Positions 7,695 to 9,977 of a DNA stretch of 47,451 nucleotides are shown here, piece after piece. The stretch comes from Thermoguttaceae bacterium (GTDB lineage: Bacteria > Planctomycetota > Planctomycetia > Pirellulales > Thermoguttaceae): NCBI GenBank assembly GCA_049509675.1, contig JBEKZQ010000667.1, positions 1-47,451 of the forward strand. Reading direction: 5' to 3'. Position 1 is the first letter of the stretch, and the number at the start of each line of letters is the position of its first letter. A model generated the notes under the pieces. The model was not told the DNA's origin. It was given only the letters and a program-made list of their open reading frames with translations, and made no database searches. Position numbers and translations under genes: made by a program.

Positions 7695-9977
7695 ATGACC
7701 TTCCACTCCGCAAAACATCGCCACCGCACCAGCCTCGAGCGCCGCGCCGCCTCCTACGGCCCGGTGCCGTTGAACGATTCCCACACGCTGTTTGGGAATT
7801 ACCCCATGACGTCGACCGGCATCCGGGTCGACAACTATTCGGCCGATTGCAACTACGTCTTCCGCCGCGGCGTGGAGGTGATTGCCCAGTCGATGGCCAA
7901 GATTTGCCGCCGCTGGCGTATGGTCCACAGCGACTCGGCCGGCAAGAAGACGAACGATCGCGGCCTGCACTGGCGGCTCTTGACCGGCGCGGCCAACCAG
8001 TACACCACCGCCTACAATTTCTGGGAGCTTTTGCAGTCCTGGGCGAAGGGCTGGGGCAACGGCTACGCCTGGATCCTGCGACAAAAAGACCTGACGCCCA
8101 TCGCGCTCTATCCGCTGCACCCGTCGCGGGTGATCCCTCGGCTGTGCAAAAACACGGATCCCGCCAGCCCGTTCCCCTGGGACCTCTTCTACACGATCGA
8201 CGGCGGCCGGGAAATTTTCCTGCCTTACGAGATCCTGCACATTAAGGGCAATCCGGGTTTCGACGGTGTCACCGGCTACAACCTGGTGCAACTCCACGAA
8301 AACACCCTGGCCATCGCCCAGGCGCAGAACGAGTACTCGGGCGAGTTCTATGCCAACGGCGCGGTGGCCGGCGGCCTGGTCGAGCTGCCCGCCGGCATGA
8401 AGCCCGCCACGGTCGAGAAGTATCAGACCGATTTCCAGAACCGATACTCCTCGCGCGGCAACCGCCACAAGCTGGCCCTGGTCGACAGCGGCGTGAAATT
8501 CACGCAGACCACCATCGACCCCGAATCCTCGCAACTCCTGGAGGCGCGAAAGTTCTCCATCTTCGAGATCGCCCTGATGCTGGGCGTGCCGCCCACCGTG
8601 CTCGGCGACCTGAGCCACGGCACCTTCAGCAACGCCGAACAGCAGCAGTTGGCGCTGAACATGATCACCCTGCATCCCATCGCCGAGAACTGGCGGCAGG
8701 AGTTGGACGTGAAGATGACGCCGCCGGTCCCCGCCGGCAGCGGCGAGGAGTACTGTTGGGAATACGACCAGGCCTTAAAGGCCCTGGACGCGGCCGATAC
8801 CGCCACGCGCATGGGCTATCTGCACACGGCCACCGGCGGCCCATGGATGTCGAAGGAGGAGGCCCGCGAAGAGGACGGCCTGCCGCAGGAAGTTTTGGGC
8901 ACGATCTATCCGCCGCCGAACATGACCGGGCCGCCGGATGGGGAGTCGGGGAGCGTGGGGCGTGGACCGGGAGGCGATGGGGAAGGGCAGCCGGCCAAGC
9001 GTTCGGGTGCCACTGCTGGCTTGCCCAGCAGTGCCGCCGTCGAGTCACGTTTCAATGCGAACCACGACCCGGCCAATGGGCAGTTTACCGAGGGGGCCGG
9101 ATCCGACTCGGCAGCCGCCGCCAGCGACAGGGCCAAGGCAGCCAGCGAGAAGGCCGCCAAAGTGCGCGACGATCCCAACGCCAGCCATGCGGAGATCGCG
9201 GCCGCCTATCGCGAGGCCCAGAAGGCGCACAAGGCGGCCGAATCGGAGCACAAGGCGAAGGCGGACCCCGACCTGGTGAAGGCCTGGCATGCCGGCAGCG
9301 CCTCGCTGTCCGATCCGAAGGTCGCCGCGGCGATGGAGCACCACGTCCGCGCCGGCTGGCACAAGGGGCAGGCCCGCGAGTTTAAGAATCTGGCCGTCAA
9401 CCGCGAAGCGCTGGCCAAAACCAGCCGGGGCACCGCCGCCGATGCCGGCGTCGAACAGCGTGGCGGCCCGGGCAGCGGGCCGAGGCCCGGTCAGGGCCGA
9501 AAGGCCCGCGCCGAAAAGGCGAAGGCCGCCTATAAGCCTGCGAGCAAGGAAAAGCAGAACCAGGGTGATCGCCGCCAGCGCGAGGTGGCCGCGATCATCG
9601 GCCACCAGGTCAGCAGCGACAATAAGCCGATGGACGTGCTGGGCACAGACGGCAAAGGGCGGAACACGGCCGTGGAAGTCAAGACGCTTTGCGACCAGGC
9701 CAACGACAAGCTCACCATGCACCCCGACTCGAAAGAGCGGAAGGAGGCCTGGGGCAAGCAGAACAAGGCCGCCCTCTACACCGTGGCCGTCGATGATCGC
9801 GACACCTTCAATGGCGGCGCCCACAAGGACGCCTATTCGGGCAACCGCTTCTATCTCAAGCAGGGCGTCGGCTCGTTCCGAGTTTCGGCCATGACGCCAG
9901 TGAGCAAAACGGAAATGAGGGCCGTGGTCCGCGGCGATATGAAGCTTTCAGACGTGGCCGCCAACCGAAAGGGATAA
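7695..9977 (+). CDS. Portal protein, HK97 family, fused to a ~330-aa C-terminal extension ending in a PD-(D/E)xK-like motif set
   Basis: Portal core: GNGYAWILR...FEIALMLGVPPTVLGD. Extension begins after an in-frame hairpin (9010-9035). C-terminus has E (QREVAAIIG), D (PMDVLGTDG) and E-x-K (AVEVKT). Confidence 0.8.
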   Translation: MTFHSAKHRHRTSLERRAASYGPVPLNDSHTLFGNYPMTSTGIRVDNYSADCNYVFRRGVEVIAQSMAKICRRWRMVHSDSAGKKTNDRGLHWRLLTGAANQYTTAYNFWELLQSWAKGWGNGYAWILRQKDLTPIALYPLHPSRVIPRLCKNTDPASPFPWDLFYTIDGGREIFLPYEILHIKGNPGFDGVTGYNLVQLHENTLAIAQAQNEYSGEFYANGAVAGGLVELPAGMKPATVEKYQTDFQNRYSSRGNRHKLALVDSGVKFTQTTIDPESSQLLEARKFSIFEIALMLGVPPTVLGDLSHGTFSNAEQQQLALNMITLHPIAENWRQELDVKMTPPVPAGSGEEYCWEYDQALKALDAADTATRMGYLHTATGGPWMSKEEAREEDGLPQEVLGTIYPPPNMTGPPDGESGSVGRGPGGDGEGQPAKRSGATAGLPSSAAVESRFNANHDPANGQFTEGAGSDSAAAASDRAKAASEKAAKVRDDPNASHAEIAAAYREAQKAHKAAESEHKAKADPDLVKAWHAGSASLSDPKVAAAMEHHVRAGWHKGQAREFKNLAVNREALAKTSRGTAADAGVEQRGGPGSGPRPGQGRKARAEKAKAAYKPASKEKQNQGDRRQREVAAIIGHQVSSDNKPMDVLGTDGKGRNTAVEVKTLCDQANDKLTMHPDSKERKEAWGKQNKAALYTVAVDDRDTFNGGAHKDAYSGNRFYLKQGVGSFRVSAMTPVSKTEMRAVVRGDMKLSDVAANRKG

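Follow-up and report, generated by a model that had tools for sequence, protein, structure and literature searches.

Fusions of phage portal and MuF proteins to effector domains have been proposed to be packaged and injected (PMC5512222), and the review of polyvalent proteins that makes this proposal notes no DNase other than ParB-like ones. Here, we describe a portal gene from a contig of a Thermoguttaceae bacterium assembly (JBEKZQ010000667.1), analyzed as a stretch of 47,451 nucleotides (nt) that we call the window. The gene encodes, in a single uninterrupted frame, an HK97-family portal core followed by a long tail, whose C-terminal domain is confidently predicted to fold as a PD-(D/E)xK nuclease. 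This portal-nuclease fusion belongs to the known class of portal/MuF-effector fusions, where its cargo family is not reported; what is new here are the predictions about its processing and a junction motif recognized in the sequence. The gene is composed of the following features.

7695..9977, + strand: portal-cargo open reading frame (ORF) of 760 amino acids (aa), in the order core, linker, helical module, linker, nuclease; stop codon TAA at 9975-9977
7812..8891, + strand: HK97-family portal core, matching PF04860 over aa 56-394 (240 bits, E 4e-71) and phrog_12, folded over ~aa 40-399
8892..9050, + strand: linker 1 (aa 400-452), Gly/Pro-rich and predicted to be disordered (AlphaFold2 predicted local distance difference test, pLDDT, <50 over aa 400-469)
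9051..9086, + strand: junction motif FNANHDPANGQF (aa 453-464), with a paralogous copy, FNPNHDDKGRF, in the prohead protease ORF of the window
9051..9461, + strand: helical module rich in Ala, Lys and His (aa 453-589; 137 aa, 14.3 kDa), which begins with FNANHDPANGQF
between the helical module and the nuclease domain, + strand: linker 2 (aa 577-608), predicted to be disordered (AlphaFold2 pLDDT <50)
9519..9974, + strand: predicted PD-(D/E)xK nuclease domain (aa 609-760), recognized from its AlphaFold2 model, Foldseek, a NOV_C signal and invariant residues
9633-9635 / 9675-9677 / 9681-9683, + strand: predicted catalytic residues D647 / E661 / K663, in the PMD and VEVKT motifs

The core is assigned to the HK97 portal family by its PF04860 profile match and by its position immediately 3' of TerL (TerS, 5275-5775; TerL, 5790-7568; the portal gene directly after). 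An AlphaFold2 model of the full-length protein contains three folded blocks (aa 40-399, 470-576 and 609-760), separated by stretches with pLDDT below 50 (aa 400-469 and 577-608). Within the core, pLDDT is mostly 80-97 up to ~aa 399. The central block consists of four helices (aa 471-576), with pLDDT of 80-92 over ~470-550 and 53-75 towards aa 576; a homology search with this module (aa 445-600) returned no homologue.

The extension is in frame with the core, because the whole gene is one ORF, the GC content at third codon positions (GC3) stays at 0.76-0.96 from its start to its stop, and the extension is free of indels in contigs from four public peat-metagenome runs (X1-X4), which cover 9007-10300. 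An earlier note on this DNA, made from the letters alone, had placed the end of the core near YPPPNMTGPP at about 8930, which agrees with the position of that peptide (aa 405-414; nt 8907-8936) and with the end of the PF04860 match at aa 394. It had also proposed an in-frame extension of ~330 aa; the frame stands, and the length is corrected to ~346 aa beyond the core. The case that it named as damaging, a sequencing frameshift that makes the extension a separate ORF, was not borne out, given the single frame, the steady GC3 and the lack of contig indels in the extension. In the ORF list, the other two forward frames contain no early stop through the G-rich linker, so a simple frameshift would not yield a short portal. 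One low-depth X2 contig has 9420-9569 replaced by 6 nt, an in-frame loss of 48 aa spanning linker 2 and the start of the nuclease domain. An exact-sequence look-up of the 760-aa protein returned no record.

The nuclease domain and its family

The C-terminal domain was modelled by AlphaFold2 with 14 homologues. The model has a pLDDT of 93, a predicted template modelling score (pTM) of 0.85 and elements in the order alpha-beta-beta-beta-alpha-beta (helix 19-36, strands 49-52, 58-66 and 73-74, helix 78-90, and strand 93-101), and it places D647 just ahead of one strand and E661 and K663 within the next. Using Foldseek against the PDB, the top matches were all PD-(D/E)xK nucleases, namely Hjc (1gef, 2wiw, 2wcw), the SPARDA nuclease and HincII, with E-values of 2e-4 to 1e-3, a probability of 1.0 and a target-normalized TM-score to Hjc of 0.6-0.67. 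Against viral models, Foldseek returned one close family member, then Hjc/RecU-like proteins. The model thus has the core fold of the PD-(D/E)xK superfamily and its D...(D/E)xK residues on adjacent strands. Because it matches nucleases of known structure, the motif set is no chance match, and the domain is confidently modelled as a PD-(D/E)xK nuclease closest to the archaeal Hjc resolvases.

Fold comparison alone led to this assignment: a profile of the family alignment, searched against PDB sequences, found nothing at E<=10. The only Pfam signal was a sub-threshold match to NOV_C (PF13020; 21.4 bits against a gathering threshold of 22.1, E 2.7e-4), which recurs at E<=1 in only 4 of 15 family members and indicates a related fold rather than membership. 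We take NOV_C to belong to the PD-(D/E)xK clan. We ruled out membership in YraN/UPF0102, as PF02021 gave no match at E<=0.1 with the protein or at E<=1 with the 15 family members.

The earlier note had anticipated much of this. Its prediction of a PD-(D/E)xK fold, to be checked by structural search, is upheld by the model and the Foldseek results, and its placing of the motif, the hairpin and the D/ExK residues in the sequence was correct. Its comparison with YraN was only approximately right as a label, given the missing PF02021 match and the Hjc resolvases as nearest structures. From its proposed set of E, D and ExK residues, D647 and E661/K663 are retained, being invariant in 157 sequences; the first E (E630, in QREVAAIIG) is not conserved. 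An acidic residue in the E630 column is confined to the window and its two closest relatives, and most other members have an E two residues earlier.

We defined the family by a profile search of 1.84 billion cluster representatives, counting clusters at E<=1e-3. It comprises at least 1,296 clusters (50% identity), 414 of which match at E<=1e-30. For conservation and carriers we used the best 157 representatives, which are at most 50% identical to one another. D647, E661, K663 and K683 are 100% invariant among them, and K672, T674, R682, T696, D700, R702, G726 and R729 are conserved in at least 96%. In 149 of the 157, no more than 25 aa separate the end of the domain from the protein C-terminus, and the carriers include both small proteins (72 of <=260 aa) and long ones (66 of >=400 aa). 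Sampling 20 long carriers, we found 11 portals (PF04860, PF06074, PF06381), 4 MuF proteins (P0082, P0085, P0128, P0136), 1 2H phosphoesterase, 1 ADP-ribosyltransferase and 3 without a match.

Stand-alone homologues are encoded in head modules, beside or a few genes from portal/MuF genes. Of four such genes, one is flanked by a lambda-type portal and an S49 protease and one by a Mu-type portal and MuF; a third follows a fusion of portal and C39 peptidase, and the fourth follows a DUF4055 portal and MuF. Their downstream neighbors are not conserved. In one locus (L003, 5286-7946), directly upstream of a stand-alone member, a lambda-type portal of 886 aa is joined to a C39-type peptidase domain, a further case of portal-cargo fusion.

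These searches define a large domain family, carried by three portal families and by MuF, that has no passing match in the four libraries searched (Pfam, NCBIfam, PADLOC and PHROGs). In PHROGs, 4 of 15 aligned members weakly match the C-terminal end of the portal family phrog_113, and the window's own nuclease domain is unmatched. A tblastn search of 50,697 deposited phage genomes with the nuclease domain and with P0009 found nothing. The portal-nuclease arrangement is widespread and so far unnamed.

Junction motif, putative cleavage and proposed mechanism

The tail is best understood alongside three further head proteins of the window.

9981..11054, + strand: MuF-like (SPP1 gp7-type) protein, a separate ORF (PF04233, E 1.3e-5; phrog_2662 positions 447-706)
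11316..12851, + strand: S78 prohead protease with a long C-terminal region, identified by profile match; putative sites IEKR|T at 11856-11867 and IEAR|FNPNHDDKGRF at 12423-12467
12435-12848, + strand: second Ala/Lys/His module, 138 aa, in the protease ORF, paralleling the portal module
17293..18672, + strand: HK97-fold major capsid protein (PF05065 from aa 163), with putative site VEYR|DLLAGTAGSGADLIPP at nt 17734-17745

The MuF ORF begins 4 nt past the portal stop codon. The portal sequence RFNANHDPANGQF (nt 9048-9086) contains the junction motif, and the copy FNPNHDDKGRF (nt 12435-12467) stands at the head of the second module; the proteases of two related phages carry the motif too. We regard the portal and protease modules as kin because they share the motif, their composition and their length (137 versus 138 aa); a BLASTP comparison of the two was not significant (E 1.2).

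More widely, the motif reads (F/Y)x(P)x(Q/H)(P/D)R D x x G(R/K)(F/W), usually with Gly-rich flanks. It begins a median of 78 aa ahead of the ExK core, just N-terminal to the nuclease domain, both in stand-alone proteins and in portal fusions, whichever of the three families the portal belongs to. A strict form of the pattern lies upstream of the core in 31 of the 157 representatives. The motif can be repeated, with 4 copies in one head module (L007) and 7 copies, ~150 to 1,200 aa apart, along a 3,673-aa protein. On this distribution, we regard it as a general junction motif of the cargo domain. An NxxHDxxGRF-like linker ahead of the cargo had been expected from the earlier note; a motif of this class does lie upstream of cargo, and in the window it directly precedes the 137-aa helical module and not the nuclease. 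The note tied the linker to the MuF-toxin fusions of other phages; the paper on MuF toxins (PMC5576092) has no occurrence of "motif" or "linker" and so is not its source. A literature search for the motif, including its spelling as a sequence, found nothing relevant.

Duda and colleagues are said to have found, in 2013, that the C-terminus of the HK97 protease is needed for encapsidation. We favor a docking role for the motif inside the prohead, because it heads the C-terminal region of the protease and because of that reported requirement.

The second pattern that unites these proteins is a set of candidate protease sites, in which the bar marks the putative cut. Those in the portal are as follows.

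7734..7745, + strand: putative N-terminal site L14-E-R-R17|A18, seen as (V/I)E(Q/R)R|A..(Y/F)GPVP in related portals
9039..9050, + strand: putative site 1, V449-E-S-R452|F453 (VESR|FNANHD), in disordered linker 1
9450..9461, + strand: putative site 2, V586-E-Q-R589|G590 (VEQR|GGPGSG), in disordered linker 2

The pattern [VI]E.R occurs 6 times in the portal, MuF, protease and capsid proteins against 0.75 expected, a count reached by 0.02% of shuffles, and every occurrence is at a module boundary. The protease ORF has IEKR|T at the end of the S78 domain (R184) and IEAR|FNPNHD (R373), and the capsid protein has VEQR|S and VEYR|DLLAGTAGSGADLIPP. In an alignment, the latter lies within one residue of the K103|S104 boundary of HK97 gp5, TFNK|SLGSDADSAGSLIQP, and it is kept as (M/F)EYR| in two related phages (L130 and L131); we predict R151|D152 to be the boundary between the N-terminal (delta) domain and the mature capsid protein. 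Related portals have (V/I/L)E(R/T/A)R|(S/T) ahead of MuF, and E-x-R directly precedes the N-(P/A)-x-H-D motif in 5 of the 5 occurrences seen in the lineage. From these sequences, we infer that the prohead protease follows a hydrophobic-E-x-R| rule. An E-x-K cut of HK97 gp5, considered at first, was dropped as support, as the gp5 sequence reads TFNK|S. The predicted fragments are the core (18-452), the helical module (453-589; 14.3 kDa) and the nuclease (590-760; 18.5 kDa, isoelectric point (pI) 10), the last being the same size as the stand-alone homologues.

Our preferred mechanism, which we consider modestly probable, is the covalent loading of 12 nuclease copies, their release by the protease and their ejection together with the DNA. 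The stem, wing and crown of the T4 portal gp20 are internal to the capsid and its clip is exposed (PMC9958956); since these parts of a portal are within the capsid, the tail should be internal. The C-terminus, on the crown side, would face the capsid interior, and the 12 subunits would each bring a tail into the prohead. The S78 protease would then cut after hydrophobic-E-x-R at R452|F453 and R589|G590, with the same rule removing the capsid delta domain at R151|D152 and allowing the protease to cut itself at R184 and R373. The 14-kDa helical fragment and the 18.5-kDa, pI 10 nuclease would be set free inside the head, and the nuclease would exit with the DNA at infection, its target being nucleic acid in the newly infected cell. 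The phage may be temperate, as a weak integrase-family match suggests (41568-42797; 26.0 bits, below the threshold of 27.1), and we therefore expect an activity that is structure-specific or restricted in its targets rather than bulk degradation of the host chromosome.

Several points weigh against this mechanism. The query-normalized TM-score to Hjc is moderate (0.45-0.52), and the family does not conserve the acidic residue that opens the canonical E...D...ExK set. The cleavage rule comes from sequence only, and HK97's own site, TFNK|S, is not E-x-K/R. The core-cassette join crosses a 134-nt inverted repeat and a highly repeated palindrome, and public contigs cannot phase it. No immunity or inhibitor gene that would spare phage DNA from a DNase made late is evident, though no aimed search was made. 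Finally, it is important to note that encapsidation, cleavage, ejection and nuclease activity are predictions from sequence and models.

The strongest alternative, plausible though unlikely in our judgment, is that the tail stays uncleaved on the 12 portal subunits and binds or holds the packaged DNA end or modulates ejection, as proposed for SPP1 gp7; the nuclease fold would then be mainly a DNA-binding module, or would cut only at ejection. The cargo does sit where relatives carry a portal-fused, gp7-like MuF, SPP1 gp7 is a portal-binding protein of which each capsid contains a few copies (PMC5576092), the domain has a strongly basic pI of 10, and cleavage is read from sequence. However, the complete invariance of D...ExK in 157 diverse sequences argues for catalysis, the domain also exists as a small protein of its own and at the end of giant proteins with many domains, and both linkers hold the enriched hydrophobic-E-x-R motif.

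We find it improbable that the domain is a branch resolvase coupled to packaging, a Hjc-like junction cutter that clears branched DNA at the portal as T4 endonuclease VII would on gp20. Holliday-junction resolvases are its best structural matches, and the association of endonuclease VII with the T4 portal is documented, as far as the citing source reports it (Golz & Kemper 1999, cited in PMC9958956). However, branched DNA stalls outside, at the motor, and the portal C-terminus is internal to the capsid; the other carriers of the domain, namely MuF, ADP-ribosyltransferase, 2H phosphoesterase and giant polyvalent proteins, are settings typical of effectors; and the similarity to Hjc is at the level of the fold (10-16% identity).

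Repeats, cassette history and genomic setting

Portals that are 67-78% identical in their core differ in their tails and are mostly in-frame portal-MuF fusions (P0016-P0030). One is portal-MuF-[HRFNANHDERGLF]-LPD3, and in others (P0021, P0022, P0032) the cargo is introduced by a G(H/R)W(V/I)TL... motif. Frameshifted assembly seems to account for two short variants in the database (P0024 and P0027). From "...FEQR|SLDARQK" onward, the MuF ORF of the window matches the post-linker part of the related portal-MuF fusions, and a ~1 kb cassette of motif, helices, nuclease and stop codon parts the portal from MuF. Judging from these sequences, the simplest history would be the insertion of this cassette between the portal and MuF of an ancestral fusion, and the nuclease cassette appears as one of several swappable C-terminal cargoes in the lineage. 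The nearest nuclease homologue (P0001, 64% identical) is encoded on its own, next to a lambda-type portal unrelated to this one, which indicates that the cassette is mobile.

We also observed a second junction motif, G(H/R)W(V/I)T(L/I)..(T/A).V.I...G, which follows VERR/IERR and leads into other cargo; it is found in the window too, at 46300-46330 on the minus strand. The N-terminus of the MuF ORF (nt 10017-10060, YVADVASGGGLADF) resembles that of P0001 (aa 17-28, SADLASGGGLALL). Both are encoded right after a portal gene, these are the only two examples found, and the likeness could reflect a common leader or portal-docking peptide. Metagenome contigs of runs X2-X4 have a +G insertion at 10069, within the MuF leader.

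Two elements mark the join between core and cassette.

9009..9035, + strand: palindrome resembling repetitive extragenic palindromic (REP) elements, inserted in frame in disordered linker 1 and encoding ATAGLPSS; stem 9011-9019 / 9025-9033
46329..46537, - strand: orphan inverted copy of the 3' end of the portal core (134 nt, 98% identical), then linker, palindrome and cassette stub

The hairpin CACTGCTGG-cttgc-CCAGCAGTG (9011-9033) has a perfect 9-bp stem and folds as RNA at -25.8 kcal/mol (z -2.4). The palindrome, GCCACTGCTGGCTTGCCCAGCAGTGCC, has three copies in the window (9009-9035, 18974-19000 and 46338-46364) with 0 expected by chance, and each of them reads ATAGLPSS in an open frame, which belongs to a plausibly coding ORF for two copies and to the orphan's reading frame for the third. 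The exact 23-mer occurs at >116 loci (L014-L129), almost all in Planctomycetota metagenome-assembled genomes (MAGs; Pirellulales, Planctomycetaceae, Thermoguttaceae), where copies are mostly non-coding and often inverted pairs. The hairpin pointed out in the earlier note is thus present, as a dispersed Planctomycetota repeat rather than a portal-specific element. This dispersal explains why its depth in metagenomes is hundreds of times that of its flanks, and it indicates that the phage host is probably a planctomycete. We dropped the idea of a clustered regularly interspaced short palindromic repeat (CRISPR), given copies scattered singly or in inverted pairs over many Planctomycetota genomes. 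An Rfam search of the window gave no match.

The orphan copy consists of the 134-nt arm, an alternative 30-nt linker, the palindrome, the first codons of a different cargo cassette (IERRSSIEAGHWVTLD...) and non-coding-looking sequence. The same alternative linker replaces 8934-8999 in some metagenome contigs. The fragment may be a recombination scar or a switch element. A speculative and quite improbable extension is that the portal cargo is switchable, with the inverted copy serving inversion or the exchange of cassettes, by which the nuclease would be switched on or off or replaced by other cargo. In keeping with this, the orphan arm (46404-46537) adjoins the same palindrome and a stub from a different cargo cassette, a host-type palindrome also stands in frame in the protease ORF, shortly before its IEAR|FNPNHD module, and one low-depth X1 contig has the linkage expected of the inverted isomer. 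If true, encapsidated effectors would have a system akin to a shufflon, whose exchange points are marked by palindromes of host type.

The least probable alternative is an assembly artefact or alternative isomer, in which the core is misjoined to the cassette across the inverted repeat (8800-8933 / 46404-46537) or the palindrome. In its favor, contigs of all four runs break at the palindrome and repeat arm, and one 624-nt X1 contig links the orphan flank, the arm, the 66-nt linker and the palindrome; the depth of that contig, however, is only ~5x, and the loss of two graph edges can account for it. Against it, neither the frame nor the GC3 signal nor the VESR|FNANHD junction shows a seam. A contig that begins within the palindrome continues through the nuclease to MuF, and in relatives MuF always comes after the portal or is joined to it. 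With the alternative join, the portal would gain a tail of >300 aa that does not look coding. Three recorded contigs carry the same 760-aa protein, and fusions of portals to this nuclease domain are common elsewhere.

The window contains further repeats. A second palindromic repeat (GGGGACTGTCCC..TTTCGTTCGACGAAA..GGGACTGTCCCC) is found at 12322-12377 (in the protease ORF), 34399-34452 and 43858-43904, and a full-length copy with 4 mismatches lies in a Planctomycetia MAG locus (L054). In the protease linker, it is in frame (GRGLSQLSFDESGTVPFGL), ~15 codons upstream of IEAR|FNPNHD, so both FNxNHD modules are preceded by an in-frame palindromic repeat. Another family, GGCCGCGTAGCGGCC...CCGTGGGTTTCAACCCACGG, forms two stem-loops (12851-12906, 38172-38227, 41262-41317 and 42794-42849), and its copies follow the protease gene and surround the integrase region. 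Dozens of short tandem arrays of about four copies, made of heptamers (AGGGATT, CTGAAAA, GCGTGGG) or octamers (GAACAGGT), often stand as inverted pairs between genes and form long imperfect hairpins; examples are 7567-7597/7634-7659 (between TerL and the portal start), 18682-18711/18739-18769, 20151-20172/20196-20223 and 32289-32318/32338-32368.

The first and last 122 nt of the window (1-122 and 47330-47451) are 100% identical, which makes it probable that the window represents an entire phage genome of ~47,329 bp, either circular or terminally redundant. Between the protease and capsid genes (13092-15671) sit GH130-like, methyltransferase and radical SAM genes. The same three enzyme families recur in a different order in the related phage L130 (14516-17058), and these enzymes may modify the capsid or the cargo.

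Comparison with known systems

If the preferred mechanism of loading, release and co-ejection is correct, this locus brings a nuclease class into the set of proteins that probably travel in the head of tailed phages and are delivered with their DNA, and it suggests that covalent loading on the portal fixes cargo stoichiometry at 12 per virion. The predicted cleavage sites, fragment sizes and catalytic residues are exact enough to make annotations of a "portal with a long tail" testable.

A likeness to MuF-toxin fusions had been suggested from the outset, and it holds up: the architecture is of the same kind as in published portal/MuF-effector fusions (PMC5512222, PMC5576092, PMC3482391). Iyer et al. 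2017 (PMC5512222) recognize portal-effectors by a portal or MuF domain joined to an enzymatic effector among virion genes, and the window gene has both. As in their examples, a virion-scaffold domain is fused to an effector in the head/packaging module, close relatives vary in their cargo, and the proposed route is packaging, then injection. The published cargo consists of PBECR RNase, 2H phosphoesterase, InPase and similar domains, whereas here it is a PD-(D/E)xK family.

MuF polymorphic toxins (Jamet et al. 2017, PMC5576092; Zhang et al. 2012, PMC3482391) likewise combine an N-terminal head-protein domain with a variable C-terminal toxin-like domain, their genes lie beside the portal, and they belong to temperate phages, as the phage of the window may be. 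In contrast, it is the portal that carries the cargo here, and MuF has its own ORF downstream rather than being part of the same polypeptide. The junction motif is not described in PMC5576092, and no immunity or inhibitor gene was recognized beside the portal-cargo gene, where no search aimed at one was made.

The domain resembles Hjc (1gef, 2wiw, 2wcw, 1ob8) in its minimal PD-(D/E)xK fold, its size and its D...ExK on neighboring strands. It differs in sequence (10-16% identity, no Pfam Hjc match), in an extra C-terminal beta-hairpin and helices, and in the invariant NxKxTMHPxSxxRK, TVxxDxR and GVGSFR.

The closest parallel for the proposed route as a whole is T4, whose internal proteins and Alt are non-structural proteins loaded into the prohead, trimmed by gp21 and injected with the DNA (PMC9958956), as we propose here. 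T4 uses a ~10-aa N-terminal signal, acts through the scaffolding core and loads hundreds of copies. The window portal would instead load its cargo covalently, in 12 copies, and release it by the putative hydrophobic-E-x-R| rule in place of the T4 rule.

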